DNA of 32,098 bases, taken from NCBI GenBank assembly GCA_900617105.1, contig UYFQ01000864.1:1-32098 (forward strand). The letters are read 5' to 3'. This document shows, in pieces, positions 4,563 to 30,332 of this stretch (positions within the stretch are counted from its first letter, which is position 1; the number at the start of each line of letters is the position of its first letter). This stretch comes from Hydrurus foetidus. Its lineage: Eukaryota. The translations under genes were made by a program, and so were the position numbers. The notes below the pieces were generated by a model that searched no databases, had not been told where the DNA came from, and saw only the letters and a program-made list of their open reading frames with translations.

Positions 4563-4566
4563 GCTT

Positions 4567-4578
4567 CAATCGCTACCA
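4567..4578 (-). other. Primer-binding site of Copia A (probably initiator tRNA-Met)
   Basis: TGGTAGCGATTG immediately follows the LTR end CTGACA on the - strand. TGGTAG start fits the 3' end of a eukaryotic tRNAi-Met; tRNA identity is inferred. Confidence 0.75.
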
Positions 4579-5086
4579 TGTCAGTTGATCAGGGACGATC
4601 AATGAGGTCGCAGGAGGCCAAGAGCACAAGCGACCAGGCGAAGAAGTTTGGGAGTTGAGTATCGAATATTCGTTAAGAATTAGAAACTAAACGCATGCGA
4701 ATTGAAAAGACGTTGCATGATGAACATCATTCTACCTGCCGCAAGTCAATAAGATCTCATTCGTCATCCATTTCAGATTTGAATTTGAACTCGTAGATTT
4801 AAGCCTACGTTGACGAGCGACGAGATATACTTCAAACCATACATCACACATGGAAAAGTTTTTATACTAACGCCCTGGTACTAACGCCATGACTCACACC
4901 ATGTATGTGACGAAGAATCTCAACTAAGTTTTAGCAGATTCCTGGGGAACCGAACCGATGACTCTCAAGTTTTGTCAGTGTGTGGATGGAGTATAAATAG
5001 CTGGTATGATAACCACTAAACCATCTAGCGCTAGATCGTTTAGTGGTTATCATACCAGCTATTTATACTCCATCCACACACTGACA
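4579..5086 (-). repeat. 5' LTR of Copia A (~508 bp)
   Basis: Inverted termini TGTCAG/CTGACA, adjacent PBS, TATAAAA on - strand near 4860-4866. Its last 137 bp recur inverted at 19336..19472. Confidence 0.75.
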
Positions 5087-5087
5087 A
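4972..5087. repeat. 116-bp near-perfect palindrome (58-bp arms, no loop, one mismatch)
   Basis: ttgtcagtgtgtggatggagtataaatagctggtatgataaccactaaacc-atctagcgctagat-cgtttagtggttatcataccagctatttatactccatccacacactgacaa; centre 5029/5030, single C:C mismatch at 5022/5037. Confidence 0.97.
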
Positions 5088-5576
5088 TTCCCTCAATGCT
5101 CGCTTCACCACCAAAGATGCACACACCTCCCGTCCGGTCTGTCCTGGATGCGCCCATGGCGCCATGCGTCAAGCATCCACAGACTATCGTCGCATCCACA
5201 GAGACACAACTACCCTCGTCGGCCAGCAGTTCTCCTTGGATGCCTATACCCACTCGACTCCATCATTCCGTAACTACCGTTACACTCACATCCTCACCGA
5301 CAATACTATCCTGTATATACAAAAGACCGGTCCGCCTCTGAACTCTGTGCCCGCATTGCAGCCTTCTTCGACCTAACCCCCCAATGGAACCACAATACCC
5401 CTGGGGTTGATCGCTTCATCCGGCATGACCCAGAGGCCAACTACCGATCTGAAGAATTTACTGCGCTTTGCGCCCGATACCGATACCGACTTGAGCACAC
5501 TGCACCTCGTGACAAACATGCCAACGGCATCGCTGAGCGAGCAGTCGGCATTGTAGCTCTCAAGACAAACGTTGCC
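5087..5576 (+). pseudogene. Copia B integrase (pre-integrase CxxC and DDE core), frameshifted and interrupted upstream by Copia A
   Basis: Across frames: CPGCAHGAMRQ, GQQFSLDAY (first Asp), HDPEANYRSEEF (second Asp), NGIAERAVG (Glu; in frame with ORF 5577). Confidence 0.8.
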
Positions 5577-7829
5577 ATGATAAGCCCTGTTCCGCATGTG
5601 CCAATGAAGTTCTGGGACCTTGCAATGTCCTATGCATGTGTTACTCATTCCTTTAACCTTAACAAGCGTATTGGTACTTCTCCGTATCACTTCACTTCTG
5701 GGCAACACGTGGACATCAGGATGCTTCGACCATTCTGGGCACCCTGCTATGTCAAGCACGCACCCAAAGATCAGAAAAGTAAAGTTGGGTCACCTCGTGC
5801 CTACCGTGCTCGGTTCGTTGGTTATAGTTTTACATCTATACTAGTCCCACAATATTTAGTATTAGAAATACTACCCAAGAACACCTACGGTACTGTTCGA
5901 GTCAGTAAGGATGTCATCTTCGACATGCACAACAACTTCAAGCATGACTCAGATGCACACTTCCCTACCGACGAGGCCTTCGCCCTCATCCCGTCCCTCT
6001 ACTATACTGATAATGATAATGACCCTATTGTGGTGCCTGAGCGAGTCGACCTACCCGGCCTCCCCTCACCTGCACCCCTTATCGACCCCGACTATATAAC
6101 CCCTGTCCCTGAGACAGAGCACTCAGTCAACGATGACATGATATACTGGTCCACCTACACCAGTTCTTCCACATGCTTCCCTGTTCACCTCTTCCGTGTC
6201 CTGCACTACAACATAGCAGTCCAAATCAAGGATCCCTACATCCCCAAAGACTTCTGGACCGCAATGCAGTACCCAGAGTGGGAACAGGCCATCAACACTG
6301 AGCGAACTAAGTTTGAAGTCAACAACTGCTTCAGGTCTGTACCCTTCACCGGCCAGCACCTCGTACCAATGATGTGGCTCTTCAGTATCAAGACTGACGG
6401 CACCAAGAAGGCCCGCCTCGTAGGTCGTGGTGATCTCATGATACCCTGGGTCGACTTCGACCCCTACGCAGTATACTGCGGTAATGTCAATGCATCTTCG
6501 ATCAAAATTGCACTCGTCATCGCCGCTACCTACAAATTATCCATGCGGGGAGGAGATTTAGTAGGCGCCTACTTAATCACACTCGCTAACCCCGACTTTC
6601 CCGTTCACATCAAGACACCTCAAGGTTACACCACACCTTTTGGCACATGCTTCCAAGCCATTGGCAACCTCTACGGTTTTCCACCAGCAGGCCAGAATTT
6701 CTCAAAGGAATTCGACAAATGTGTACGCGAATGTGGATACGAAAACACACCGTGGGACTTAAAGTTCTTCTTTAAGTGGGTCCAAGGTCAACCCCTGATA
6801 CTGATAGCACACTCAGACGACTTCAGATGGTTCGGACCACTTGCACTCATTAGCGAATGGGATCTCCTCATCGCTACATTCAACTCCCACAAGTATGAAG
6901 TCACCGACGCGACCTCCAAAGAGTTCGTCGGCATCCGCATTACATGCGATGAACACTTCAACTACTACATGGATCAGTCACGCATGATCACATCCATCGT
7001 ATCGGAGGCCAACCTTGCTGGCGCCGCCGATGAGCATCTACCATATCCACCTTCTGGTGAGAGTCTGTCCAAGGCGGACAACTCTACCGATCTCGATAGG
7101 CACATGTATAATAAGTATCCCTACCGACGGGTAGTTGGTCAACTTATGTACGGTATGGTACACACATTGATTACAATCATGTACGCTCTCAACATACTAT
7201 CCAGATATAGTAACAGTCCAGGTGCACGACACATCAAGTTCCTTAAGCACTTACTTCGATATGTCAAGTACGCCAAGATGGATAGACTGAAATTCACCAC
7301 ACACGACGGTCCCACCGACATCGCTACGATGACCAGTCTACTGCAGCTGAAGTTCCAATGCGACGCCGACCTCGCCGGTAACAAAGACAACCGTCACTCC
7401 CAGACCTCCTACATTGGCTACCTCGCCGACAATGTCATCTGCTGGAAGAGTACCGACCAAGGCAGCATCTCATCATCAACTGCGGAATCCGAAATCAAGG
7501 CAGTTAATCACGCACTTAAATCCGATGTCATTCCCCTCCGGGGCATACTAAACCACATGGGATGGACACAAGCTCCTACAGTCATCGAAGAAGACAATTC
7601 TGCTTGTGTTGATGCTTCAAATCATACACACATGACCAAGAACCTTCGTCACATTGACCTGAGCGAAAACTACTTTAAGGACAAAGTCGCCGATGGTACC
7701 TGTGTCATTGTTAAAATCCCTTCGGGCGAAAACAACTCAGACATAGGTACGAAAAGAGTTCCACTACCACTTTTCGAATACCTAACGCACAGGCTCGTTG
7801 ACAAGTCTTTACGAACTAATATTAAATAA
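5577..7829 (+). CDS. pol: Copia B Pol: integrase C-terminus, reverse transcriptase (RVT_2 type), RNase H
   Basis: FWDLAMSYA, RARFVGY, VSKDVIF, KKARLVGRG, DLVGAYL, NLYGFPPAG, IAHSDDF, PYRRVVGQLMY, CDADLAG, SSTAESE, EEDNSAC, RHIDL, SDIGTK. Confidence 0.95.
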   Translation: MISPVPHVPMKFWDLAMSYACVTHSFNLNKRIGTSPYHFTSGQHVDIRMLRPFWAPCYVKHAPKDQKSKVGSPRAYRARFVGYSFTSILVPQYLVLEILPKNTYGTVRVSKDVIFDMHNNFKHDSDAHFPTDEAFALIPSLYYTDNDNDPIVVPERVDLPGLPSPAPLIDPDYITPVPETEHSVNDDMIYWSTYTSSSTCFPVHLFRVLHYNIAVQIKDPYIPKDFWTAMQYPEWEQAINTERTKFEVNNCFRSVPFTGQHLVPMMWLFSIKTDGTKKARLVGRGDLMIPWVDFDPYAVYCGNVNASSIKIALVIAATYKLSMRGGDLVGAYLITLANPDFPVHIKTPQGYTTPFGTCFQAIGNLYGFPPAGQNFSKEFDKCVRECGYENTPWDLKFFFKWVQGQPLILIAHSDDFRWFGPLALISEWDLLIATFNSHKYEVTDATSKEFVGIRITCDEHFNYYMDQSRMITSIVSEANLAGAADEHLPYPPSGESLSKADNSTDLDRHMYNKYPYRRVVGQLMYGMVHTLITIMYALNILSRYSNSPGARHIKFLKHLLRYVKYAKMDRLKFTTHDGPTDIATMTSLLQLKFQCDADLAGNKDNRHSQTSYIGYLADNVICWKSTDQGSISSSTAESEIKAVNHALKSDVIPLRGILNHMGWTQAPTVIEEDNSACVDASNHTHMTKNLRHIDLSENYFKDKVADGTCVIVKIPSGENNSDIGTKRVPLPLFEYLTHRLVDKSLRTNIK

Positions 7830-8544: not shown

Positions 8545-10448
8545 TGTACATCAGTAAGTACAGGTATACTATCAATTGTAGCAGGTGGGACTGGTGTACT
8601 ATTATCCAGGGTATTACAAATTTTCGGTTCTGCACTAGTGACCGGTTCAATGTGAGTGACGGGTGTGGTTACACTATCCGGTCGTAATGCTACTGCACTA
8701 GTTTCGACTAGTGCAGTAGTATTACTGTCTATTTCATTGCTGTTAGGCTTAGCTTTACCTTTTGGTTGACGGGTAGTGTAATCGCATTTGGAGTTATCTG
8801 AGTTCGATTCCCATGTGTGTTCTCTCTTGTCTCCATCGGCGTTTGGAAGTGTACGTTTTTTATTGACGTCTGTAGGAGTCTCTATGTTACACTCATCAAT
8901 ATCACGCGTTCGCGGTGGAGTTAGTTTCTGAAGTCTAGATCGTTCAGTTTTATGGCTGTCATCGGTACTCGTGATAGATGATGATAGTGATTTGTTGTCA
9001 TCTTGATCATTATCTGAGGCATTAAGAATGGTCTCAGGAGAACTAAAATCTAATTCCATATTCGATGGTGATTTGTTTTGTGGACGTTGCGCAGTGTTCA
9101 TTGCTCTTATGATACGCATATCTTCTTTACGCTGTATATGTAGATACCTACTGTCAAATTGAGGTGGTTCTACGAGGTTTGGTGGTTTGTTATCATGTTT
9201 TTCAACAGGATCTTCATTAACCTCTCTATCTTTCGGGTGCACAAAACGAGTACCAAAATTTATGTTCTCATATTTAGTATTAAACATTGGTCTATGTTTT
9301 GGTACAGCAACGTCTTTAGGTGAAAATTCTTCTAAGTTTTCATGCTTCAGTATTCTATCTGCTTCTAGTGTCATTGGAGTTGATGGTGATACTTTAATTT
9401 CATCAACAAGAGATCTACCAATACGAGCGATGAGCTGAAAGTGCTCTTTGATACCATGGCATGTGAATATCGGATCAACTATATCATATATTTGAAGTGT
9501 AAGTACGTGTCGTAGTACTGTTATCTTTATAGGATCGTTGTCTCGATAGAAGCCGAGGTATTGGGCGGTGAATGCCATGAAGTCATAAACGACTGAGCGT
9601 ATTACCGTCTCAGCATATAGTGTGTTATGTAGTACTGAATTGTATGATGTTACACTGTCTATAATATTCAGTACACTAACATACTCTTCGAGACTATGGA
9701 CCTAGGACCAGTATGCTCCAGGCTCATGTGCTGGTAGGGGTGTTTCAAATTTTCCATTAATTAGATATGAATTATATAAATTATATTTGAGAGCATCCGC
9801 CTCTACCTTCTTCCATGGCATGACTACGCATGCTTGTAGCATTGACGCGCCCATACTATATAATAGTCTTAACCATTGTGTATATGGTTTTGTAATATCC
9901 GGACGTCTGTCGTCATGTCTATTAACATGCCACCCAAGTAAAGATGTATAGTAATTTGGTATTTCTTCACCGTCTTTAATAGATGTTGTTATTTTATGTA
10001 TAAAAGATCCAGGCAATATAGAAGTTGTTTGATCGTATCTACCATATTCAGGCATACGTGTATTATATTGGTAATTTTCGGCATGCAAGAAAGCTGCGTT
10101 AACACCCCGTAGAGGAATATTTGGTACTTCATAATTGTTTGCAATATTATTACTCAGAAAACGATGATGCAATTTACGTGTCTCTTCATGTAAGCCTAAG
10201 TGGTCATACATAATTCTTTTATCAGCAATATCTTAATTTTGTCTTGCTGTACGAAGAATTCTTTGTGAGTCTTCGTCGATGCAGACGCGCATGAGTACTT
10301 GGCGTTTTTCTTGAGCTGACTCGAATGGCGCTTTTGATACATTGGACCAGTTAGAGAATCTTCCCTGTTTACCACTAGTATTAGTGTTACGTTGGAGTGA
10401 CATTAGTTTGGTAATAGCCCTTTTTTGATTATTAGAATATTGTCCTAC
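8545..10448 (-). pseudogene. Copia C polyprotein continuation (second copy of the unknown domain plus low-complexity linker)
   Basis: ORFs 9702..10211 and 8523..9578 share a frame separated by TAG; homologous to A ORF 1432..2997. Confidence 0.75.
9357..10448 (+). repeat. 1.09-kb direct repeat, copy 1 (copy 2 at 14366..15449)
   Basis: Near-identical sequence; about 8 substitutions and an 8-bp deletion in copy 2 (offset changes from 5009 to 5001). Confidence 0.97.
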
Positions 10449-10656
10449 TGTGGTCGTACCGGGTATACCGGGCTTACGGGCCGTACCGTACCTCGTCATT
10501 ATCCACCCGATCCTTCCGCCTACAGTACGCATACAGCCCTACCAAGACTAGCTAGCTAGCTGCAGCCTACTCGTAGAAGTTAACTAGCTTCTAGCCTAGC
10601 CTGTAACCTAAGCACAACCCGCTCTTCTGCCCTTCTCCTTCTCCATCAGGACTACA
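10449..10656 (+). repeat. 5' LTR of Gypsy D (~208 bp; right end inferred)
   Basis: TGTGGTC...GACTACA imperfect inverted termini; related sequence at 19202..19335. Confidence 0.7.
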
Positions 10657-11215
10657 ATAGCGCTATTCGTCCGCCCTTTCTTCTACTACCTCTCAGTCCA
10701 TCTACTTGTCCAGAACTTTTAGATAAGACTTCCTGAGCCATCGCTCGTCCGCCACTGGCCGACTTCTCTTGCAGCTTCGAGCTCAGAGAACTGTAGTTTA
10801 AGTTAGAGAAAGTCAGCATACCTGCTTTCTTGGAATCCCTAAGTTTGGGCTCTTCCATTCTTTAAGTTTCCGGTCGAAGTCGAAAGATCCTTCCCGAGAT
10901 TCATTAAAGATCTGCTCTGACGGTCGATTGAATCACGGATTCATCACCGCCGACATAAGATTAGTCAAGAGACGTCTTCTTGTCGCTGAAAAGCAGCAGC
11001 GTATACCTTAAAAGGTATCCACTTTTTCTACCACTCAAAATTTGGCTCTTAAGCCATTGGACTTTTCAGTTCAAGAGTTGGTTAGAATCCTCTAACGCGT
11101 TGTTACTGACGTTACAGTACCCGTTAGCGAACAAGGCAAACCCCTTGCAAATTTTTTTTGACAAGAGGGGATTGATCTCTGCTGTGTTTAAGCGAGATAC
11201 ATATCTAGTAACGAT

Positions 11216-14200
11216 ATGTCAGCCGCACCTCCATCTCCACCACCTCCTGATGAGGAGGAGATTGCTCGTCTCGCAGCGTTGGCTGCCCTCAATGAGACTA
11301 TTCCAACCAACAGTTCATTGTTTGGTAACAGCTCGCTGACGATGCAACTCCAGAGTGAGGTATTCGTGCTCAGACACAACTTCATTGATGAAGCTGATGC
11401 CATTGAGTTCTACGAACAGGCTCAACGCAATCCCAACATGAAGTTGACGGACTGTATGCAGAAGCAGGCTATCGAACTACTGAACTTCAAAATCTTAGTC
11501 GATCCTGAATTCAACATCATTGATCGTCGACAACGTCATGATTGGTTCACCATACTATCGGTGACTCAGGTAGCCACTCTAGTAGTGAAGTACTTCTGCC
11601 CAAACGGTTTGGGGGAGTGTACTTTGGCAGAGAGTTTTAGCCAAATTCCCTTCCACTACCAGATCGCTAACCACGATCATGAGAATGCCACTTTCATTCG
11701 CTACAACGAATTAGTGAGCAACTATGAAAGGCTGACTATGACTCAGCATGCTGAGCTTATTCAGATCTTGGAGAAGCGCCTAGCTAAGGGTAGTCAAATT
11801 CAACAAGACTACCTGAGAGCGAAAGCAGCTGACACCTCACCACCTAACACGTGGACGTGGTTAAAGACTATGCTACGCATTGGTCAGGTTCTGGCCGAGG
11901 CTAGGTCAATGACGAACCTCATCAAGAGCTACGGCAACCCGGAGGTAGTGTACTCGTTCCCTTCATCGGCTATTCCGCCTGAGGTTGGTAAAAAAGAGAC
12001 AAGCAGAGCAAGTGTTAAGGCACCCTCACCTACTCCATCCGGGACGTCTAAGTCACTTACAGCGACTGTGCGTACAACAGGCTCGTACATTCCGACTCAG
12101 CACGGACTCGCTGTCCGTGCGTCGACGGAAGTGCCGCTCGTGCGGGTCTAAGTCGCACATGTTGATTGATTGCCCCATTCTGTATTACTCCGACTCCAAT
12201 ACAGACCATTCGGCTGATTGGGAGGATTCTACATTGGGTATGGCTTGGGCAGCGGTAGGGTTCACAGAATGGCAACAACATCTCGTACTCCCCGGATACG
12301 AAGATCGCGTTCTGTTACTCCCTAAGGGTTCTAAACCCTACTTGATGTCTAACGACAACAAGCGCCCCAAAAACAGCCATGGTGGCGGTAACAACCCCAA
12401 TGCCTCTGGTGGTTCAGATCGTTCCAACCAGGGACAAGGGGGGTATAACCAAAACCAGGGGAACCACGGTAACCAGGGAGGTGGTTACCATGGCAACCAT
12501 GGAGGGGGTAGAGGTAAGCAGAGGGGAGGATACAACCCCAATGCAAACCAAAACCAGGGTCGTGGATCCGGTGGCAGGGGAAACAAATACAACCCCCCAC
12601 AGGGAAACAACCCTCCCTCCTCCTCCAGTTCAGGTCAGGATCAAGGTAAGAACCTTTATTCTGATGACGTGGCTGCTGTCTTTGACAATGATTCCCATAA
12701 TCTGATGGATAGTCATGTTGAAGAACAGCCATATGTAACTATTCGTGAAGAATTTTTGCATGATCCATCTGTCCTTCCTTCTCATCACCTCAACGTAACT
12801 GTTATCGTGCAGGATAAGGAAAGGACTGGCCCAGCAAGCGAGCTGCGAGCCGTTGGAAGAGCCGTGTTGGACACCGCGAATTACTCGGAGGATTTTATTT
12901 CTTTTACTATGTTAGAAAAATTGAATGCCACTCCGCTCCTACAGCTATCACTGTTTGTAGCGGCCTCGATGGTCAATCTTATTTAAATAACGAAATTTGC
13001 GATTTAAAAATTCTTTTTCATTCTTACGATGGCGAATGCCAGAGCATCAGCTTACCCATGAGGGTGAATAGGAAAACCGAAATTGAAATTTTGTTTAGCC
13101 GTAAGACGGTAAATAAATATGATTTTTGGTCTTTAACTCCGTTTGCTTTCGGCATATCGCCAGAACTTAGCGCGAAAAACAAAAAGAAAAGCGATGCGCG
13201 CAAATGCGAATTCGGTAAGAAGGAAGCTTTGTTGAAACTTGATCCCATGTATCAACATAAGTGTACGCGTCAAATGATAGCGTTGGGTGCCGAACTAGAT
13301 ACAGCTAAAGTCGAGTGTATCACGCCTCATTATGACAAGCTGAAATATCCAGGCGGTAAACCTACCTCTAAAAAGAGGGTAACATATGGAGTACAAGAGT
13401 ACTCATAGAAGAAGAGCGTTTTGCTTGGTCAATCTTCTTCGAAGAGCAACGTCTCCTGTGTCCATTCAATGTCGACATGTAACGATACCCAAAAGGATAT
13501 TGAGGGAGTCGCGACCCAAAATTCCTGTGGTGATGTAAGATGTGAGCGACTGAATAGTGTCACTACTATTCTCGTAAAACGTACGGGTGATACACCGCAC
13601 CTAGGTGGCGACTAGATTCCCACCCTTACACATACCTTTGGGGATTCTGATACCCCCGACTATGTCACTGAGCCTTTATGGCCCAGTGGTGTCGCACTCT
13701 CAGTTGACGAGATTGACGATGGCAAGATAGACACGTTCGCACCCTTCTTAGCGGAGAAGCCTAGTCAAGATGACTTGCCCAAGGGGCCAGAGGATTTCCT
13801 CAACCAGATTACCTTTGAGGGAGATGAAAGCTTTCAAAGGAAGCTCCGAGAGCTCTGTTCTGAATATTCAGACATCTTTAGTGATCAGTTAGCTGAGAAA
13901 CCAGCATCACTTAGACCTTTTGAGATTAACATCCCACTTGAGTTGTGGGGAAAAGACGAAAACCGTACGCCGGTACGTCCCCAGTCATCGACTAAGGAGG
14001 TTGCTCTTAAGGAGAATCTCGATGAGATGCTTGCGTCGGGGGTTATAGAGCGGTCAGATGCTGCTTATTACAGTCATCCTGTAATCGTAACTAAGTCACC
14101 CGGTAAATTTCGAACCTGCATCGATTACCGGCCACTTAATAAGTGCCTGACTCCTGCCTCATTTCCCCTACCGAATATCAAACATCTTTTTGAGAGGATC

Positions 14201-14365
14201 GGTAATAAAAAACCGGATATTTTTGGTGTGATGGATTTGACCGCGAGTTACCATCAAGCACCGTTACACCCCACATCGCATTTTCACAGCATTCATATGC
14301 TTTGCGGGGGTTTTTCAGTTTACGAGACTGCCCTTTGGTCCGTGTCGTGCCCCCTCTTACTTTCA
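11216..14365 (+). pseudogene. Gypsy D gag-pol (Gag, zinc knuckle, Gly/Asn/Gln-rich tract, protease, partial RT), frameshifted
   Basis: CRSCGSKSHMLIDC; AVLDTANYSEDFI; VCSGLD motif shared with Gypsy E; RT motifs in 13775..14365. Confidence 0.85.
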
Positions 14366-15449
14366 ATCTGCCTCTAGTGTCATTGGAGTTGATGGTGATA
14401 CTTTAATTTCATCAACAAGAGATCTACTAATACGAGCGATGAGCTGAAAGTGCTCTTTGATACCATGGCATGTGAATATCGGATCAACTATATCATCTAT
14501 TTGATACGTATCGTAGTACTGTTATCTTTATAGGATCGTTGTCTCGATAGAAGCCGAGGTATTGGGCGGTGAATGCCATGAAGTCATAAACGACTGAGCG
14601 TATTACCGTCTCAGCATATAGTGTGTTATGTAGTACTGAATTGTATGATGTTACACTGTCTATAATATTCAGTACACTAACATACTCTTCGAGACTATGG
14701 ACCTAGGACCAGTATGCTCCAGGCTCATGTGCTGGTAGGGGTGTTTCAAATTTTCCATTAATTAGATATGGATTATATAAATTATATTTGAGAGCATCCG
14801 CCTCTACCTTCTTCCATGGCATGACTACGCATGCTTGTAGCATTGACGCGCCCATACTATATAATAGTCTTAACCATTGTGTATATGGTTTTGTAATATC
14901 CGGACGTCTGTCGTCATGTCTATTAACATGCCACCCAAGTAAAGATGTATAGTAATTTGGTATTTCTTCACCGTCTTTAATAGATGTTGTTATTTTATGT
15001 ATAAAAGATCCAGGCAATATAGAAGTTGTTTGATCGTATCTACCATATTCAGGCATACGTGTATTATATTGGTAATTTTCTGTATGCAAGAAAGCTGCGT
15101 TAACACCCCGTAGAGGAATATTTGGTACTTCATAATTGTTTGCAATATTATTACTCAGAAAACGATGATGCAATTTACGTGTCTCTTCATGTAAGCCTAA
15201 GTGGTCATACATAATTCTTTTATCAGCAATATCTTAATTTTGTCTTGCTGTACGAAGAATTCTTTGTGAGTCTTCGTCGATGCAGACGCGCATGAGTACT
15301 TGGCGTTTTTCTTGAGCTGACTCGAATGGCGCTTCTGATACATTGGACCAGTTAGAGAATCTTCCCTGTTTACCACTAGTATTAGTGTTACGTTGGAGTG
15401 ACATTAGTTTGGTAATAGCCCTTTTTTGATTATTAGAATATTGTCCTAC
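14366..15449 (+). repeat. 1.09-kb direct repeat, copy 2
   Basis: Matches 9357..10448. Confidence 0.97.
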
Positions 15450-17599
15450 ATTCAAACCTTGACCTGCCTTAGGGCCGATGTGGTCAAGTATATTTCTAGG
15501 TAAGTCAATATTAAAAGGTATTTTGGGATTTTGAGGCTGAGTGTGTTTAACATTAGGCGTGTTATCTTTTCTCGCTCTATTATTATCATACCCCTTATCA
15601 CCTTTTGGCTGCATAATATGAGGCCATTTGCATGTAGGGTTTTTACATTGATTACGTTGATATGCGTAACAGTACTGTGCTGTTTTCTCTTGCGGCGATT
15701 CGCCTGCTTTCTTATCAGCTATGTATTTAGGAGTTGGGTCTACTGTTTTCGCCTGTGATGACGAACTAGTACCGTATAAGCTTGCTAGCTGTGCATTATC
15801 CCATGATGGGTCTGGGGGCTGGTATGCAGTCCTGACCGCTGCTAACTGTACTGTTGCAAGGTGTGGCGGGAGTGCGTCTGCGACCCAGAGTATATTTGCC
15901 ATTATATCCGAGTCGATTATTCATCGAGGCTGCGAATGATGACACGATTAGCGGTCTACCATCATCTGAAAAGTGTTTTGCTAAAAAGGCGAGTTTTGTT
16001 TCACTAGAAATCTTTTTGTTATTTGCATATGAAAGATTATTGAACAAATTTCCCATCTAATGAATTCACTACGTACTGTCTTATTTTGATCGACTTTAAA
16101 TAGTGTGATATTATTTTCAGCAATTTGGATATCTTGCTGACGTTGGCCAAACACATGACTAATGATTTGATTGAATGATATAACACCATCTCTTTCTTGA
16201 TGTGCCTCGTTACTGACATAGTGACGGCAATCTTTATGGAAAATTGTATCTAACAGTGAGTATAGTCGATCAACATCGTATGTATAATAATATATGTCGT
16301 CTTCTTCTAGAATAATATCTTTTGTATTTGATATAGTGAAGGATAAGTCTACTCCTGCTACTACTGGTGGTTTATATGGGAGTACTTTCTGTTTCCTATA
16401 TCCGTGCTTATTCTTATCTTGAATGAGAATTGGGCGAGTGCGGTGTCCTTGCACGAGTGTGAGGAGTCCGACAGTATTTAGCAGGGAGTGAATTTGCCGG
16501 AGACGGTAAAATTTGTCAGTAGAGTTAGGATGGATTTGAGAGTTGCTGAACATTTGAATTGCAGCAGCCGAAGTATCTAACCATTTTGATCTTTTTACTC
16601 GTCTATTGCGTTTACGTTTCTTCTTCTTGTATTCCGTTTCGGAGGATGAAGAACTATGGTCCTTATAGTAAATTTTATGGTTATAGCTAGAGGAATCAGA
16701 GCTGGATGACGATAAGTCATCTGGTGGATCCGTAGATTTCTTTTTCTTTTTAGGGATGCAACGTGCATTGCCCTTGCTCTTTTGTGAGGATTCGGACGGG
16801 TCGTCCGATGAGTCGGATGTGTGAGAGATATCCGCGATATGAGTCGGATATCCTTTCTTGTGAGAGATTTTCCGCGAGGAACTCTTCTTCTTCTTATTAT
16901 TATTATTATTGGAATTACTATCTACCTTCCCATTATTATCGTTATTTCCTATGCTCCCCGACACAAGGTCAGCTTCATTCCTAGGGCTATCTACATTGTC
17001 GTTATTTGATGTTTTATTGGAGGACTTCCGTGAATATTGCCGAGACGATTTGTCTGACTTCTTCGTAGACTTGTGGCTTGCGTCGTGTAATTCATTTTCG
17101 CGTAATTTTAATCTATTTTTGCGGCGTCTATCCGATTGAGAGGTCAGTTCATTGTCCTCTCCGTCAGAAGAGCTATCGTCGTCATTTTCCCGACGCATAG
17201 AAAAAAATTTGCGAGGGTTTTCCCTGTAACCATCATTGGATAATTTTTTTCTAGGCCACCCGTGGACGTTAGATCATTTGTATTTCTACTCCTACGTGGT
17301 TGATGGGTGGGATTTGTGGCGCTGCTCCGATCTAGGGGGTTACAAGATGAGGACTGATCGCTATAAGGCTGATCCGTCCTTGCTGCGATGTCACCTGTCG
17401 CATAGACGGCAGGGACCTTCGCAGCATCATCTCTGCTGCCCATCAATCGAAGCAGTGCCCTATCTAAGGCGTTTACTTCGATGGAAGCAACGACTGATTC
17501 AACTTCTGGAGCAGCGGCGATGGGCTCCTGCGGGTTCGTCGGGCTGTTGTCGCTGTTCTCGTTGTCGCTGTTTGTCTGAGAACGAGTCTTCATGGACAT
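14366..17599 (-). pseudogene. Copia C Gag + CCCH finger + unknown domain (frameshifts, in-frame stops at 15234-15236 and 14703-14705)
   Basis: ORF pieces 17144..17599, 15981..17198, 15796..16056, 15234..15902, 14703..15212; finger CYAYQRNQCKNPTCKWPH (C-x7-C-x4-C-x3-H). Confidence 0.75.
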
Positions 17600-17646
17600 T
17601 AAGTCGATGGAATAAGCTTTGGCGGCTGGTCTTTAATAATCTTGGT

Positions 17647-17658
17647 CAATCACTACCA
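17647..17658 (-). other. Primer-binding site of Copia C
   Basis: TGGTAGTGATTG abutting the LTR end; 11/12 identical to the PBS of A. Confidence 0.75.
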
Positions 17659-18080
17659 TGTCAGTTGACAGCAAGCGTGTAAGCGCGGTACCGTGGTCAA
17701 GAGCAAATATGATTTGTGAGGACCCACGATGAAATATCGTGCAACGGGAAAAGAGTTTAATTATGAGTTAGAAACTTGGTTGGCGACACAAAAGGTAACG
17801 AATGGTGGCAAGCAATCTACCTGACAAACGTCTAGAAGTTACTCTGACGTTGCAGTTCCCGAAATGTCAGATCGCAGGAGATAAATCTCTGCATATGATA
17901 AATGAGGTAGTAGTTCATACACTTATACATACTGGAGGGATGGTAGGTGATGAGTCTCGTACTAAATGTTACCCGGGTCTGCTAGGGCTATGTTTGAGGT
18001 ACTATAACAATGGCATAACATACGATATGAAAGGCATTGAGGAAGCGGCTTGACTGTATGCTATTGTGTGTTCCTTAACA
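17659..18080 (-). repeat. 5' LTR of Copia C (~422 bp; outer end inferred)
   Basis: - strand TGTTAAGG...TCAACTGACA; shares short motifs (caagagca, ttagaaact, tctacctg) in the same order as LTR A. Confidence 0.6.
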
Positions 18081-18985: not shown

Positions 18986-19201
18986 ATATTTTTCGATATC
19001 GATTCGATTCTCATTCATCTTCATTTTTCATGGAGCCGAGTAAAAGTTTCAGGGCAACGAAGTTCAGTTAATCTGAGTTAATTATTTCGAGTTCAATGCA
19101 GCTAACATTCTTTCAGTCTGACGCATACTCATTTCATGCTGCATTTTGCGGGCTACTATGTCATCTCCCAAGTGTAGACGCCGGGCCTCTCTGTTCTCCT
19201 C

Positions 19202-19472
19202 TGTGGTCGGATCGGCTATACCGGGCCTACGGGCCATACCGGACCTAGTCCCGATCCATCCGATCCTGCCGCCTACTGTACATATACATCTCTAGCACAG
19301 CTGCTAGCTAGCTCCAGCCTTCTCATAGAAGTTTACAACGTCTTTTCAATTCGCATGTGTTTAGTTTCTAATTCTTAACGAATATTCGATACTCAACTCC
19401 CAAACTTCTTCGCCTGGTTGCTTGTGCTCTTGGCCTCCTGCGACCTCATTGATCGTCCCTGATCAACTGACA
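19202..19472 (+). repeat. Chimeric LTR remnant: 5' ~134 bp of a Gypsy D-family LTR fused to the 3' 137 bp of a Copia A-family LTR
   Basis: 19202..19335 aligns with 10449..~10582; 19336..19472 is the reverse complement of 4579..4715 with 2 mismatches. Confidence 0.9.
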
Positions 19473-20626: not shown

Positions 20627-21546
20627 CTTGCACTCATCACTTGAAGCAATACATTCAATTAAGCATCATACTTTCATATATAATGCAGCGTATTAATCTT
20701 CTCGTACTAATTACATATACTGTATGTATACTAATCATTTCGACTATAATTGTCACATCTCGTACATACGCCTTAAACGATAATATACACACACTTGCCG
20801 TATTTCGCCCATTTTATCCTCTGATATAACTAACATAACTCAATACCACTTTTGATATTTGTTTGGTCAGAGAGTATCAGTAAGTGTTAACATCATAGTT
20901 GAACAATGTTTACAGAGAAATGGGCCTCGAAAGATTGCAAGCGAAATTCAATGAACGGTTATTTGAGACGCCGTAAAAATGAAAATATAGAACTGGTATG
21001 ATGCCCTCACCTGCTGTTTACCAGCTACACTTACAAAGCGCTCGTAATTCGGCGTAACTGTTACACTAAACTGCGCTATATAAGTGGATCGAATCATTGG
21101 AGCAGCACTTGGACTGAAAGCGATAAGGTAGGAGAAAAATACGAGAAGAAAGAGACTAAAAAAACGAAAGTGTGGAAGTAAGCAATTTCCGCCAGCCTTC
21201 GACCGTTATATGATCAATTAAAGAAACGATATTCATTACACGTTCATGTTGTTTTATAAAAAAAATAAGACAGAGAGAGAATGCAAGAGTGCAATTGGTC
21301 TATGATGGAGGCTACACGAAAGGTAAAAAAAGTAAGTAAATTTGTAAGATGCCCTAACCTACTGTTCCTCTACATCCGATAAACTGTTGAAACACTGGGA
21401 ATCTGGCGTTGTCGGTGAAATCAACGGCAGTTAACCACAGCGGATGTTGGAGTGGCACGTGGACGAGAAGTTGGTACAACATTAGAAAAGACGTTGATGC
21501 AGCAGCGCAGCGCCATGACTAGACTTCGGTGCAGCGTTATGACTAG

Positions 21547-21810
21547 TGTAGCCTCACTGTATCTGTACTGCATGTACGGATACACTGTGACTGTATACTA
21601 TACCTGTACTGTAGATTCTAGAACGGACCCAAAGTCCGGTACAGTTTTCTTTTCTTTTCGTTTCCACGCGAGTACACATCACTGTAGATACTACTGCTTG
21701 TTTCTCGCTGTAAACTATAAGAATACTCTTCCACCTCCCCCATCTTCGTTTTTCGCCTCCGTCCTCGTCCATCGTCCTCGTCCACCGTCCTTTGGTCACC
21801 AACGACCATA
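21547..21810 (+). repeat. 5' LTR of Gypsy E
   Basis: TGTAGCC...GACCATA; matches 27019..27282. Confidence 0.95.
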
Positions 21811-21885
21811 ATATCGATATTTGGTTCTACGACCAAAATTCTGTCCTTTTATTCCTCCATCTTTTCTCGAGAAAATTTTCAGAGC

Positions 21886-24800
21886 ATGGCTATTCGCCGT
21901 ATCCGTGCCAAAGCCTCGGCTAAGGCCACCACCAACACCACCAACACCACCGACAACACCAGCGCCATCTTAAGACGAGCTCAGCCGCGCGCTGTCGCCG
22001 TCGCAGCACGGAAGGCGTATCTTAAGCATACGCAGCGCAACGTCCAAGACATAGAGTCTCCTGGATCACCTGCGATTCAGGACCCCGCCGGAGACCTGTC
22101 TGCGCCGGCGTCTCAGCCGACGTCGGGGCCTGCGGTCGTGTCTGCTATTGATGTGCCTGTCATTTCTGCGTTGTCTGCTTTATCTCTTTCACCAGCTTCG
22201 GCTGCGATACCAGCTTCGGCTGCGACACCAGCTTCGGCTGAGATCACGTCGACTTCGGTCGATAGATCTGCTAATCAACGTGCTTTGGCACCACCAACTC
22301 AGTACGTGCAAGTTGGTGAGAAAGCTCCTAAGTTGAGCGCCAAGCCGTCTTGGCAAGAGGTTCAAAGAGTTTCAGAGGTTCTCCTCTCGAATGGAACGCC
22401 GTTTCGGCCAGTTGATGTCGTTCATCACAGCAACTTCCAATCTTTTAAAACCCTTTTGCAACTTCGATTTGCAACCGACCCTGATCGTCGAGACAGTTGT
22501 AACAACTGGAGAAACTGGACTAATCAGAATTTTTGTAGAGAATTGAATTTGGCAATTCCTGCAACTGCGACGTCCAGAACGGATAAACTAGGATTCATTG
22601 AATCCATTACTCAGATTCAAATTCAATTTGACCTGAAGAACCCATCAGTGGAAGAAAAGACAGACCAGCTTTTAGCTGATATTGTCGATGCATTCCCTGA
22701 GGTGTCAGCTGCCATGCAGTTAACAGCAACTAAAATTCTTATTGATAAGTTGCCAGCTGAACCCATTAATTGGAGGTCAGTTTTGTACCGCACTCTCGAT
22801 AGAACGCCACGTCTTATCACGGTCGATGATTTTCGATTCGTGTGGCGTGCGCAACTAAGAAAGCTACGAGAAGCAATTGATGCTTTACGGTTTGTAGACG
22901 TCCACCCGACTTATGGCGATCATTCTCGCCAAATCAAAAACTCTAACCGTCCTCCTCAAGAGCCACGAATTAAAAACGGCAACGAGAGGACGAGAAGCCT
23001 GAGCAATCTGACAAACCCCACTGTACCGGCTGTGGGAGACTTGGCCACTTAGTAGCCACTTGTCGATTCGGCTCTTCTCCGTACTTTAACAGTACCGAGA
23101 AACCTTTCCTTCAGTCGGAAGGAGGCAAAGATCTTTTGAAGATCGATCCCAAAGCGACGTTCATTCCAAACGCGTACGGAACATCTTCTTCTTCCGCTTC
23201 CTCCTCTTCTTCTGCGTCTTCTAAGACCGCGGCCTCGTCAGCAGACACTACTCGTGTCGCGAAGAAACAAAAAGGTGACTACGTTTACAACCTTAATATG
23301 TCGTCAATTGACAACCCTTCCGTTTCATCGGATAAACATCTAATCCCCTTCTTTATTTCTCATATTTCTCAGCAAACTTCGCTGGAAGAGAAAAATAGAG
23401 TCTTCACTCTATTGGATACGGGATCGATCGCCAGCAATTTTATAGCTAGGCGTGTTATAAATAATCTTAACTTAACACAACATGTTTCTAAATCTTCTAA
23501 GACAGCGTGTAAAGTTTGTAGTGGTTTAGATAATCATTGCTATGAAATTTCTGAAACCATCGACTTAAAACTTTCTTATTTTTGCCCTGATTTAAATAAT
23601 TATTCTTCTTTCCAAATCACGGCTTATGTTTTAGAACAAACACAAATTGATCTAATAGTGGGAAGAAAAATTATACGAGATTTAGATCTATTCTCGATTT
23701 TCCCAGATCAAATAAAATCAAGCACTTCATCGCGACCAACCCCAATAAAGGGAGTCTCGACTTCTGAAGATGTGGTCATAACATGTGGCTGTCAGCCCGA
23801 AGAGACTTTGCAAACCTCTAAAGGAACCCCAAAAGATCTTTCATTAACCCAAATGAAAGATCCGGCAGTCACCCAAACACATGTCATACTAGCTTCGTTA
23901 ATTCAAGAGTCGGAACAACTATTTGGAGTTGTGCCGCCTGATGAAGATGAAATTGATGATTCATTAAATGACTCCTTTTCACCATGGATTAATGAATTTC
24001 TTGATACAGATTCACTCTCGCTAATACACATAGCAGGTGATGAAGATCAGAAAAATAAACTCCGTTTACTATGTAACGAATTTAGGGATATATTTAGCAG
24101 TGAGCTTCCGGCTAGCCCTGCTGATATCCCACCGTTTGAACTTAACGTGGATGACGTAAAATGGAAAGTCTCCCGTAATAGAACACCTCCTCGACCACAA
24201 TCCACTGCAAATCAAGCTGACATTATACGTCAACTCGCGAAACTTGAAGAGCAAGGGATTATCGAGAAATCAAATGCGGCTTATTACAGCCAAGTGCTTA
24301 TGGTTCCAAAGTCTGACGGAACCAAACGCATGTGTATAGATTATCGAAATCTTAATGATTGTACCGAAGATGCATCATGGCCCATTCCTAACATAAATGA
24401 AATGTTACGTCGAATTGGTGCTCATAAAGCAAAAGTATTCGCTACACTTGATCTCACTCAAGGATATCATCAAGCACCGCTTACACTGGCAGCACGCGCA
24501 TACACTGCATTCATACTTTTCTGTGGCGTGTATCAATTCACTCGTCTGCCCTTTGGGCCTAAACGAGCTCCTTCTTACTTTCAACAGACCATGGCAACTG
24601 TTGTATTAGCTGGTTTGATTTACACTATATGCGAAATGTACATTGATGATTGCAATGTTTTCGGCAAAGACACTGACGAATTAGTTTTTAGACTCCGTCT
24701 TGTTTTTCAACGCTTTCGACAACATAAAATATTTCTTAAACCAAATAAATGTTATCTTGGCTATTCCGAAATTGATTATGTTGGCAAAGTCCTTTCTGCT

Positions 24801-26811
24801 GAAGGACTAAAAATGTCACAAGAAAAAATACGGCAAGTTTTAGATTTTCCCAAACCAGATATATCTAAACAACTTAAAAGTTTTTTAGGTTTGGTAAACT
24901 ATTTTCACGATTTTATCAAAAATGCTTCAACTGTACTATATCCGTTACACCAGTTGCTTGTTGATTATAATAAATCTAAAAAAAATAGTTTGGACACCAG
25001 AAGCTGACTCAGCATTTGAGTTAATTAAATCTCAAACTGCAAAATGCACGACAATGCACTTTTTAAGTGACACCGATCCGATTTACTTGCACACTGATGC
25101 ATCGGATTACGGTGTAGGTGCTTATCTTTTTTCAGTTAGTTGACGGAAAAGAGACGCCCGTAGCATTTGTTAGTAAATCGCTTAACAAAGCTCAACTTAG
25201 GTGGGCAGTTATACAGAAAGAAGCATATGCTATTTTCTTTGCGTGCACGTATTTAAAATCGCTATTACGTGATCGGATGTTTACATTACGCACCGATCAT
25301 CGTAACTTGTTATACATTAAAAATCATTCAAATCCAATGATTGTTCGTTGGCTTATGGCTTTATCAGAATTCTCATTTAAAATTGAATTCATTTCCGGTG
25401 TTAACAATGACATAGCTGATTCGATGTCTCGACTCTGTCGTAACAACATGATTGACCATCCTCAAGAATATTCACTTGAGACAATCATGTCTGCCAATAT
25501 AATTGAAAAATTCAAACTGACTCGTGAACAATACAATACTATAAGTAATGTACACAATTCACAAGTTGGTCACTTTGGTCTTGAGCGCACTTTAAAGCGT
25601 CTCAAAGACAACAACAAGGTGTGGCAGTTTCAACGACAGCATGTCAGGTGGTTCATAGATCACTGTTCGTGTTGTCAAAAGATGAGCATGTTAAAGATCC
25701 CAATTCATGCTCACGGCTTTTCGACTTCTACTTACACACCTATGGAATGCCTTAACATAGACTTCGTAGGACCGTTTCCAGACGGGGGGTACGTACTCGT
25801 AATTATCGATACGTTCACAAGGTGGGTTGAGCTGTTTCATACTAAAGATGCTTCGGCACTTTCGACAGCTCAATGCCTTTTGCAACATTTCGGTCGTTTC
25901 GGCGCACCTCTCCAACTCCGTTCTGATAATGGGCCACACTTCATTGCCGAAGTTATCAAAGAGTTTCTAACTCTTATTGGCACTCAACACTGTTTAACGT
26001 TAGCTTATTCTAAAGAAGAAAACGCCATTGTTGAACGCATGAATAAAGAAGTTAATAGACACCTTCGTGCTTTAACTTACGATAACGTAACGCTTGATGA
26101 TTATTCAACATCACTACCATTTGTGCAACGAATTTTAAATTCTAATCACAGTGATCGTTTAAAAATCTCTGCATCTCAATTGCTTTTCGGCAATATACTC
26201 AAATTAGACAGAGGAATATTTCTTCCTCCATCTGAGAGACTTGTTATTAATGACAAACCTTTGTCGGCACGTATGAGCAATCTATTAAAAATACAAGATA
26301 GTCTTCTCAAAGCTTCGGCCAAAGAACTTCTTCGTACAGATTTACTTCATCAAAACCAATCTCAGATCTCTCAGCATATTGAGTACCCTCGCGACTCATA
26401 TGTTCTTGTACATTATCGCGATGGATCACCTCCAACACGTCTTCATACGCATTGGAGAGGTCCATTAAAAGTCGTCAGTGGCGAAAATTCTCGTTACACT
26501 CTATACGATTTGATCACACAAAAACAGCGGTATATCATGTATCTGCCATGAAACCGTTTCTGTATGATCCAGCGATTACAAATCCTGTTGATGTCGCGCG
26601 TCGTGACCATATGGAATACTTCGTAGAAGACATCGTTGATCACCGTGGACCTCATCAACGCTCCAAGATTGAGTTTTTAGTCAAATGGTTAAATTACCCT
26701 TCTGATAAAAACACTTGGGAGCCTTACTCCAATCTTCGTGATGTTGATAAACTTCATGATTACTTGCGTCAAAATAATTTGACAAAACTAATCAATAAAC
26801 AACACCGTTGA
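21886..26811 (+). CDS. Gypsy E Gag-Pol polyprotein (single ORF once four homopolymer indels are corrected)
   Basis: CTGCGRLGHLVATC knuckle, LLDTGS protease, CIDYRNLN / LPFG / YIDD (24639..24650) RT, TDASD RNase H, H-x5-H...CSCC and IDF/SDNG/VER integrase, WRGP, chromodomain YFVEDIVDHR...FLVKWLNYPSDKNTWEPYSNL. Confidence 0.93.
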
Positions 26812-26992
26812 TTTCTTCACTCGAAACGTTATTCATGAAGAATTTACCTCCTATTTTTTTATATTCTTTTTTTGGAGGAATTTAGTCAGTAAGAGTCTGA
26901 CATCATCGTTTTCGAAGTTTCTCATTTTTTTCAAAATGTGTTTTGTTTCGTCTTTCTTTCCCACTCTCATACAAATATTAGTAGAGTTCATT

Positions 26993-27015
26993 GGAAAAGA
27001 AAAGGGAAGAAGGGG
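26993..27015 (+). other. Polypurine tract of Gypsy E
   Basis: GGAAAAGAAAAGGGAAGAAGGGG, 3 nt before the 3' LTR. Confidence 0.9.
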
Positions 27016-27018
27016 TAG

Positions 27019-27282
27019 TGTAGCCTCACTGTATCTGTACTGCATGTACGGATACACTGTGACTGTATACTATACCTGTACTGTAGATTCTAGAACGGAC
27101 CCAAAGTCCGGTACAGTTTTCTTTTCTTTTCGTTTCCACGCGAGTACACATCACTGTAGATACTACTGCTTGTTTCTCGCTGTAAACTATAAGAATACTC
27201 TTCCACCTCCCCCATCTTCGTTTTTCGCCTCCGTCCTCGTCCATCGTCCTCGTCCACCGTCCTTTGGTCACCAACGACCATA
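27019..27282 (+). repeat. 3' LTR of Gypsy E
   Basis: Matches 21547..21810; preceded by the PPT. Confidence 0.95.
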
Positions 27283-27469
27283 CTAGATGTTGGATAGGCA
27301 CTTGGACGACGTGTTGATGCTGCCCAATAACATGACGTTGGTCATGCTCTTTGACTTCATGTTAGGTTGGCTGCTGTAGTAATGAAATCGAAATTCGCCT
27401 TTTAAGTCACTTATAATTCAGGGTGGGATAGTTCCGTCTGATCGGTCTCAATCCCTCACCTCCTCAAGT

Positions 27470-29105
27470 AAACAAGGCGTTGTGCTTCAGTCATTCCTCA
27501 ATGTCCCCTGCGACAGAAAGTCTCAAAATTAAAAGAAACCTATGTCATTGATGGTGTTCATTTTAGGGAAATCAAGAGATTGAAGGTACCGGAGCGAGAG
27601 ATTAAGAAATCTGACTACGACGACAACATCGATTGATTATGGTAATCTGATCTTGAGAGTTTTCCGCACCTCAGTGCAGAATAATCGAGCGACATCGTCG
27701 TTGGAGATGGCGCTAGTGCCGTAGGTTCCTTAAGCTCAATTTGCGTCCCGCAAGACTGGAGCCGTGACTATCATATCTTCAGGGAGATGCGGCGCAATGA
27801 CGATGAGGTCGCCGCCTGCAACCTTCATTGCAACTGTGCAGAATTGTGTTATTTGACAACCCAATCAGTGTGATCTACAGTGCATTAGCTCCCGAAGAAG
27901 ATAATGTGATACAGTCAGTCTTGGAATCCACTCGAGAAACATGCAAAATTTGACGGACTATTTGCTTTTTTTTCAGTATAAATTTGCTCGGATTTCAGGA
28001 AAAAATTGGTGGGGAAAATGGCTTGCAATTTTTGATCAAATTTCAGTGAAATTTTGATCGCGCTTTTAACGGATTTTAATAATTGATCCAAAAACTTCCA
28101 AATTTGCTATATTTTCAGTCAAATTGATTCACCGAAAATTATCATCCCATGTACAATTATCCGTTCGTGTGCACTAGATAGGTGTTTACCTCTTTTTTAA
28201 AAGTTACTCACACATCACACACACTGTGAAAAATGGCAGAATCCGGGGCAAAAAAATAGAATCCGGGAGGCCTGAAACAAGGTGTTGTGCTTCAGTCATT
28301 CCTCAATGTCCCCTGCGACAGAAAGTCTCAAAATTAAAAGAAACCTATGTCATTGATGGTATTCATTTTAGGGAAATCAAGAGATTGAAGGTACTGGAGC
28401 GAGAGATTAAGAAGTCTGACTACGACGACAACATCGATTGATTATGATAATCTGATCTTGAGAGTTTTCCGCAGCTGAAATTCAGTTCATTCTTAAGAAG
28501 CACTCAGTGCAGAATAATCGAGCGACATCGTCGTTGGAGATGGCGCTAGTGCCGTAGGTTCCTTAAGCTCAATTTGCGTCCCGCAAGACTGGAGCCGTGA
28601 CTATCATATCTTCAGGGAGATGCGGCGCAATGACGATGAGGTCGCCGCCTGCAACCTTCATTGCAACTGTGCAGAATTGTGTTATTTGATAACCCAATCA
28701 GTGTGATCTACAGTGCATTAGCTCCCGAAGAAGATAATGTGATACAGTCAGTCTTGGAATCCACTCGAGAAACATGCAAAATTTGACGGACTATTTGCTT
28801 TTTTTTCAGTATAAATTTGCTCGGATTTCAGGAAAAAATTGGTGGGGAAAATGGCTTGCAATTTTTGATCAAATTTCAGTGAAATTTTGATCGCGCTTTT
28901 AACGGATTTTAATAATTGATCCAAAAACTTCCAAATTTGCTATATTTTCAGTCAAATTGATTCACCGAAAATTATCATCCCATGTACAATTATCCGTTCG
29001 TGTGCACTAGATAGGTGTTTACCTCTTTTTTAAAAGTTACTCACACATCACACACACTGTGAAAAATGGCAGAATCCGGGGCAAAAAAATAGAATCCGGG
29101 AGGCC
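27470..29105 (+). repeat. Tandem duplication of a ~0.8-kb unit (27470..28272 and 28275..29105)
   Basis: Near-identical copies; about 6 substitutions and a net 28-bp indel (~28474-28502 present only in copy 2). Confidence 0.95.
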
Positions 29106-29727: not shown

Positions 29728-30332
29728 TCACTGCGATTCTAATCGCCTTACCTGCAGTGGAAACTGTTCATCTAGTCCTGTCAAGGTGTACCAGTGAGAG
29801 ACATCACCTCATCGACTCGGTGAACTGCTGTTGGCCACGGTCTGCCCTTCCACTTCACAGCTGACTTCTGCAGCATATTATTCTGCAATTCAACTTTTAC
29901 TCACTGCGATTCTAATCGCCTTACCTGCAGTGGAAACTGTTCATCTAGTCCTGTCAAGGTGTACCAGTGAGAGACATCACCTCATCGACTCGGTGAACTG
30001 CTGTTGGCCACGGTCTGCCCTTCCACTTCACAGCCGACTTCTGCAGCATATTATTCTGCAATTCAACTTTTACTCACTGCGATTCTAATCGCCTTACCTG
30101 CAGTGGAAACTGTTCATCTAGTCCTGTCAAGGTGTACCAGTGAGAGACATCACCTCATCGACTCGGTGAACTGCTGTTGGCCACGGTCTGCCCTTCCACT
30201 TCACAGCTGACTTCTGCAGCATATTATTCTGCAATTCAACTTTTACTCACTGCGATTCTAATCGCCTTACCTGCAGTGGAAACTGTTCATCTAGTCCTGT
30301 CAAGGTGTACCAGTGAGAGACATCACCTCATC
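29728..30332 (+). repeat. 173-bp tandem repeat, 3.5 copies
   Basis: Units start at 29728, 29901, 30074 and 30247; only one substitution noticed (cagctg/cagccg). Confidence 0.97.

Follow-up and report, generated by a model that had tools for sequence, protein, structure and literature searches.

Three types of primer, all of them used by plant elements, are described for LTR retrotransposons, namely a whole tRNA, half a tRNA and the 5′ end of the element's own transcript (PMC6317226; PMC4600332), and the start of minus-strand DNA is normally set by a site at exactly the LTR-boundary position (PMC6317226). The Gypsy elements Tf1, Tf2 and Tj1 and the Tf1/sushi and Tcn1 groups use the third type, in which a piece of their own RNA is cut from a duplex and becomes the primer (PMC4600332; PMC6317226). 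Two described systems have none of the three types and have been left without a mechanism. In the fungal Copia element GalEa, a palindrome called the Conserved Hairpin Site, which includes the final A of the LTR, replaces the primer site (Donnart 2017; PMC5445492); it was proposed as a substitute for that site with no mechanism assigned, and the excerpted text of its authors offers no model in which one RNA primes a partner. Skipper, a chromodomain Gypsy element of Dictyostelia, has lost its TGG site, carries a pyrimidine run there and, according to the excerpt, has no complementary region in its LTR; self-priming of a new type has been suggested for it (PMC5006619). Further, in Ty1 (PAL1/PAL2) and at the dimer-initiation sites of retroviruses, two genomic RNAs pair through short 5′-leader palindromes, but these lie away from the LTR boundary and the tRNA primer site is kept (PMC6844567). 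The literature searched, whose coverage is incomplete, yielded neither a Gypsy palindrome at the primer position nor a partner-priming model. In particular, the excerpts of PMC10886601, PMC5348765, PMC6875170 and PMC2774666 contain no such palindrome, that of PMC8220671 treats LTR-end motifs only, and that on bivalve mini-elements describes palindromic and inverted segments with no mechanism (PMC6934838).

The DNA analysed here, a stretch of 32,098 nt from Hydrurus foetidus (the window), contains a young chromodomain Gypsy element with identical LTRs and a 4-bp target-site duplication. This element, E, spans positions 21547 to 27282 of the forward strand including both LTRs (21547-21810 and 27019-27282; 264 bp each, 0 mismatches between them), and copies of CTAG flank it on the left (21543-21546) and on the right (27283-27286). 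The earlier note had set the LTR end by comparing the LTRs and reading the target duplication; the end at 21810 stands, although the window copy by itself is ambiguous by one base (CTAG with an LTR ending in CCATA, or ACTAG with one ending in CCAT). The ambiguity is settled by contigs from other insertions of E, which leave the reference after 21810. The target duplication is therefore the 4-bp CTAG, and the last base of the LTR is also the first of the palindrome described below. Such loose ends after 21810 occur in runs X8 and X2, several contig pieces end at 21810, and there is one stray loose end at 21811 and one at 21808. Some copies of E carry a T>C variant at 21809, which gives the usual TG...CA LTR, and the window copy reads TG...TA.

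Between its LTRs, E has a gag-like reading frame without a Pfam match (21886-23052), followed by three pieces of pol on the same strand. The first (22974-25007) contains a CCHC knuckle and a protease motif, both read from the translation, and the reverse transcriptase (RVT_1, E 8.6e-21); the second (25118-26551) contains RNase H and integrase (RT_RNaseH, Integrase_H2C2 and rve); the third (26551-26811) contains the integrase tail and the chromodomain (Chromo, E 4.6e-14). A polypurine tract (26993-27015) is followed by TAG and the 3′ LTR. The LTRs, the target duplication, the polypurine tract, the Gypsy order of domains (RT, RNase H, integrase) and an RT whose best solved relative is that of Ty3 (E 8e-47) together identify a Ty3/Gypsy element. 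A chromodomain at the integrase C terminus is the chromovirus arrangement but is not by itself diagnostic of chromoviruses, as Gypsy groups outside them have also captured one (PMC5348765), and an Atlas look-up returned generic Gypsy clusters from mixed eukaryotes. The reading frame of E is broken at about 23000, at 24980-25130 and at 26520 despite the identical LTRs. As the window and the short-read contigs disagree at these places, the breaks may have arisen in assembly or may belong to this copy alone. Two joints in contigs of run X4, across 21816-23742 and across 21840-22025, represent internally deleted derivatives of E; each was seen in one contig, and one of them falls at the centre of the palindrome.

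At the primer-binding position of E lies a perfect 12-bp palindrome, AATATCGATATT (21810-21821), that starts on the last A of the LTR. From the local base composition, a 12-bp palindrome is expected at one fixed place with a probability of about 1.8e-4. As the whole window holds 17 palindromes of at least 12 bp, the claim made for this one rests on its position and its conservation. In contigs of four runs, no variant is listed inside it and both of its flanks are variable. Cofolding predicts that the duplex extends beyond the palindrome, past a bulged base at 21809, by pairing a U5 arm (GACCA, 21804-21808) with a leader arm (TGGTT, 21822-21826). Across relatives this extension is weakly supported: pairing of the outer arms in a fixed register is found in 14 to 23 of 32 rows, and the extended duplex is better than with shuffled flanks in 30 of 39 representatives, with p<0.05 in 5 of the 39. 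Immediately downstream, a small hairpin (TTTGGT-TCTACG-ACCAAA, 21820-21837) has a folding energy of -5.5 kcal/mol, which sets it apart from shuffled sequences (p 0.005). It is specific to family E, and such a hairpin occurs in 4 of 40 representatives rather than clade-wide, so that a role for it is not supported. An Rfam scan over 21500-21950 gave no match at E values up to 1.

Relatives of E were drawn from metagenome contig loci, using the best 80 of 233, among which the RT closest to that of E shares 60% identity with it; the viral contigs searched contained no related locus. The loci are related to each other and many come from few samples. Among these best 80, the junction between LTR and leader is visible in 49, and in 47 of these the palindrome there is perfect and 10-14 bp long. 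The two others are L050, whose palindrome has a single mismatch, and L078, a distant locus on a long branch, which has an ordinary TGG site instead. The 31 loci without a visible junction are too short, contain the 3′ LTR only or are interrupted, and they include L034 and L048, where long upstream DNA shows no recognisable junction. A quick tree of the unnamed relatives, used only to choose representatives, joins L080 to L078 and L079 on long branches. Whatever its length, the palindrome starts at LTR +0 or +1 in all 39 representatives, L050 lying outside this set: on the last A of the LTR in 36 and one base later in 3.

Because most junctions were recognised through the palindrome itself, two checks were carried out. 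The first relied on a second LTR end, behind which unrelated DNA begins; it confirms the boundary for E and for seven families of relatives (L004/5, L012/27, L018, L019, L042, L049/50 and an element on the minus strand of L032). In 4 of these 8 families the LTR match extends 1-2 bases further. Target duplications were unreadable in L042 and at the lone LTR of L002, and a strict polypurine-tract rule, which missed many LTR starts, was not used as an anchor. The second was a search with the arms of E alone, [CT]AATA-N4-TAT. Within leaders, the centre proved self-complementary in 33 of 37 matches, vs 2 of 25 elsewhere, and the Fisher p of 7e-11 for this difference overstates the case because the loci are related and related copies inflate it.

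The palindrome's sequence varies in a manner that preserves its symmetry. When 32 distinct junctions are placed in the 12-bp register, 98.4% of cells are paired, as compared to 32-63% in slid controls; the alignment (A2) is without the 10- and 14-bp palindromes of L049, L080, L055, L059, L061, L067 and L050. In five of the six pairs both members have changed, and at the two innermost pairs this is so in 20 and 15 of the 32 rows; the arms (AATA...TATT) are conserved in sequence. Of the 16 possible self-complementary four-base centres, 11 were seen, and the different palindromes number 21 (19 among the representatives, that of L021 and that of the minus-strand element in L032). Moreover, the centre can switch between close relatives: L004 and L005 have TCGA and TTAA, respectively, within flanks that are identical at 115 of 119 and 115 of 118 positions, and tandem copies in L037 have CGCG and CTAG. 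Overall, the observation is real: throughout the clade, a covarying palindrome stands in place of the tRNA site. The survey of relatives that the earlier note had called for was answered in its favour, as the palindrome is conserved across the clade with matched changes on both sides, and the lack of conservation that the note had held would speak against it did not appear.

Folding calculations bear on how this symmetry is used. As a single strand, the palindrome alone is predicted to have a folding energy of 0.0 kcal/mol in 39 of 39 representatives; as a dimer, the same 39 range from -4.4 to -14.9 kcal/mol. For E, the predicted dimer reaches -24.1 kcal/mol vs -3.9 kcal/mol per hairpin. The innermost pairs are impossible in a hairpin and yet change on both sides, a pattern in the aligned sequences that points to pairing between two molecules. 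The earlier note had offered two uses for the palindrome. Pairing of two RNAs fits best with the covarying centres; as its only function, a snap-back inside a single RNA does not agree with a palindrome that does not fold alone and whose central pairs covary.

A second element of the window, D, has a palindrome at the same position. Its 5′ LTR (10449-10656, forward strand, TG...CA) has ends that were inferred in a window holding no 3′ LTR or other second copy, and AATAGCGCTATT (10656-10667) comes after GGACTACA, at the position that AATATCGATATT has in E, which upholds the earlier observation that the two families share the feature. The RT piece of D is 43% identical to the RT of E. D ends inside its RT; its 5′ part (10449-14361) is flanked by a 1096-bp block, 98% identical between 9353-10448 and 14362-15449. 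A partial lone LTR at 19194-19336 is 81% like that of D and is cut off by the LTR of another element. The window contains two minus-strand LTR-type elements (25-4715 and about 14700-17690) with a TGG right after the LTR end TGACA, at 4578-4576 and 17658-17656; their long reading frames have no Pfam match at threshold, and an LTR copy of 137 bp is also present at 19336-19472. Elsewhere, a Copia pol frame (5274-7829) has a near-perfect palindrome of 116 bp without a spacer (4972-5087) a short way upstream, and the stretches 27470-29105 and 29728-30332 hold a duplication of 830 bp and a tandem repeat of 173 bp. Short palindromes within LTRs also recur between families (TTGCATGCAA at L001:7271, L003:5780, L004:1924 and L016:5886; TAGCTAGCTA at L023:5188, L039:264 and window position 10548), and are possibly promoter elements.

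The closest precedent of the palindrome of E is the Conserved Hairpin Site of GalEa, which it resembles in position and shape without being a member. In the excerpts on GalEa as in the clade of E, there is no tRNA site, the last A of the 5′ LTR belongs to the palindrome, a larger hairpin is predicted with a bulge at the LTR junction, and no LTR sequence complements the site. The two also differ. GalEa is a Copia element, whereas E is a Gypsy element by domain order and RT; the palindrome of GalEa is described as 10 bp long with two main forms, whereas the clade of E has 10-14 bp and the 21 forms seen; and GalEa is described with a second complementary 9-mer 12-41 bp downstream, which was found in 0 of 39 representatives with up to one mismatch allowed. 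Among Gypsy elements, the Tf1-type site pairs with the 5′ end of the transcript within the LTR, whereas the site of E is its own complement and has no complement in the LTR; Skipper differs in having its pyrimidine run where the clade of E has a palindrome. Finally, unlike Ty1 and the retroviruses, this clade has its palindrome at the LTR boundary in place of a tRNA site.

The explanation that we prefer, and to which we give even chances, is that two co-packaged RNAs pair through the palindrome, that one of them is cut and that it then primes the other, the cutting and priming steps being the conjectural ones. After two packaged molecules pair at the palindrome, the element's RNase H would cut one strand of the duplex, and the 5′ piece of that strand would prime synthesis on the partner. 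In Tf1, RNase H likewise cuts a duplex to free the primer. Integrase usually trims two extra bases. With the last A of the LTR numbered 0, position i pairs with 11-i, and a cut between +8 and +9 would place the primer end opposite +3, leaving two extra bases for integrase. The duplex between the proposed primer piece of E and its partner is predicted to comprise 9 pairs, a bulge and a further 5 pairs (-14.4 kcal/mol). If the primer were copied during plus-strand synthesis, a change in one arm would be mirrored in the other, which would explain the quick switching of centres; this mirroring step is weakened by Ty3, where, according to the excerpted report, the primer site is not inherited through copying of the primer (PMC5371799). 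In favour of partner priming, no other primer was found when a TGG site, an LTR complement and an anticodon-arm pattern were looked for; against it, several palindromes consist entirely of A and U and are weak (-6.8 kcal/mol, and -4.4 kcal/mol in L080).

The strongest alternative keeps the pairing but places the priming elsewhere. The palindrome would then act in dimerisation and packaging only, as do PAL1/PAL2 of Ty1 and the retroviral dimer-initiation site, and priming would fall to a protein, to a host RNA that binds at another place or to a different part of the RNA of the element. The covarying centres fit this equally well, and 5′-leader palindromes do drive the formation of Ty1 RNA dimers (PMC6844567). 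However, the palindrome starts at LTR +0 or +1 in every representative, at any length; moreover, dimer signals elsewhere are described as coming in addition to a primer site (excerpt of PMC5445492), and here no other site was found. We therefore consider a purely dimerising role unlikely, though deserving of serious weight.

Less probable still, at a level we would call improbable, is that a single RNA forms a hairpin at the palindrome, to which the U5 and leader arms contribute, and is then cut and primes in cis. An extended hairpin is indeed predicted in many members (at the energy given above for E), with a bulge at the LTR junction as described for GalEa (PMC5445492). Yet the loop bases of a hairpin need no self-complementarity and all 11 centres have it, the palindrome alone does not fold, and a 4-bp stem would put the primer end at the last base of the LTR. 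There is a similarly small chance that the palindrome acts in double-stranded DNA or cDNA, as a two-fold protein site or in the pairing of cDNA ends, unrelated to priming. The palindrome is as symmetric in DNA as in RNA, and its conserved arms would suit such a protein, but a protein that reads the arms does not need the free spacer of 2, 4 or 6 bases between them to be self-complementary, and priming would be left unexplained.

A host tRNA, a tRNA half or another small RNA, binding here or at the TGG at 21822, is a very improbable primer. TGG-type sites are used in this host, as the two minus-strand elements of the window have a TGG right after the LTR. However, TGG adjoins the LTR in 0 of 39 representatives, in agreement with the earlier note that no tRNA-type site lies next to the LTR of E; it appears at +10 to +17 in 6 of 39, where the U5 end can pair with it. 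The earlier idea of a displaced primer site at 21822 loses ground to this count and to an insertion variant behind 21826, by which some copies of E have an extra base and thus vary inside TGGTTCTACG. Furthermore, near-identical families differ in the palindrome's centre, the anticodon-arm (half-tRNA) pattern, a rough one built from tRNA invariants, occurs in 1 of 40 representatives and not in E, and there is no tRNA gene within the window. Ordinary self-priming of the Tf1 type, where the first bases of the transcript pair with the site, is scarcely credible: apart from 9-nt matches inside the LTRs of L001, L016 and L067 (3 of 39), the longest LTR match to the site averages 5.8 nt vs 5.8 nt after shuffling over the 39 representatives, some of whose LTRs are partly in view, and is at background level in E (5 nt over the whole LTR; shuffle mean 5.2). 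Over the LTR sequence scanned in E, the complement of the transcript's 5′ end that the earlier note had named as refuting its idea thus did not appear.

Partner priming, if correct, has consequences beyond this element. What is new, as judged from sequence, is a putative tRNA-independent primer site of the GalEa-like kind, now in a Gypsy lineage, with a mechanism that is hypothetical. It is conceivable, at slightly less than even chances, that this is a fourth way to start the reverse transcription of LTR elements, in which the two packaged genomes pair at a palindrome on the LTR boundary and a cut in one lets it prime its partner, making dimerisation and priming one step. Such a mechanism would have arisen more than once, in this Gypsy lineage and in the fungal GalEa Copia elements, and would explain the GalEa site. 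The lineage of E adds what GalEa lacked, in that its 11 self-complementary centres make it possible to test specifically whether two RNAs pair. Should one genome indeed prime the other, no host tRNA would be needed, such elements may escape silencing by tRNA fragments, and tools based on tRNA sites would miss them.
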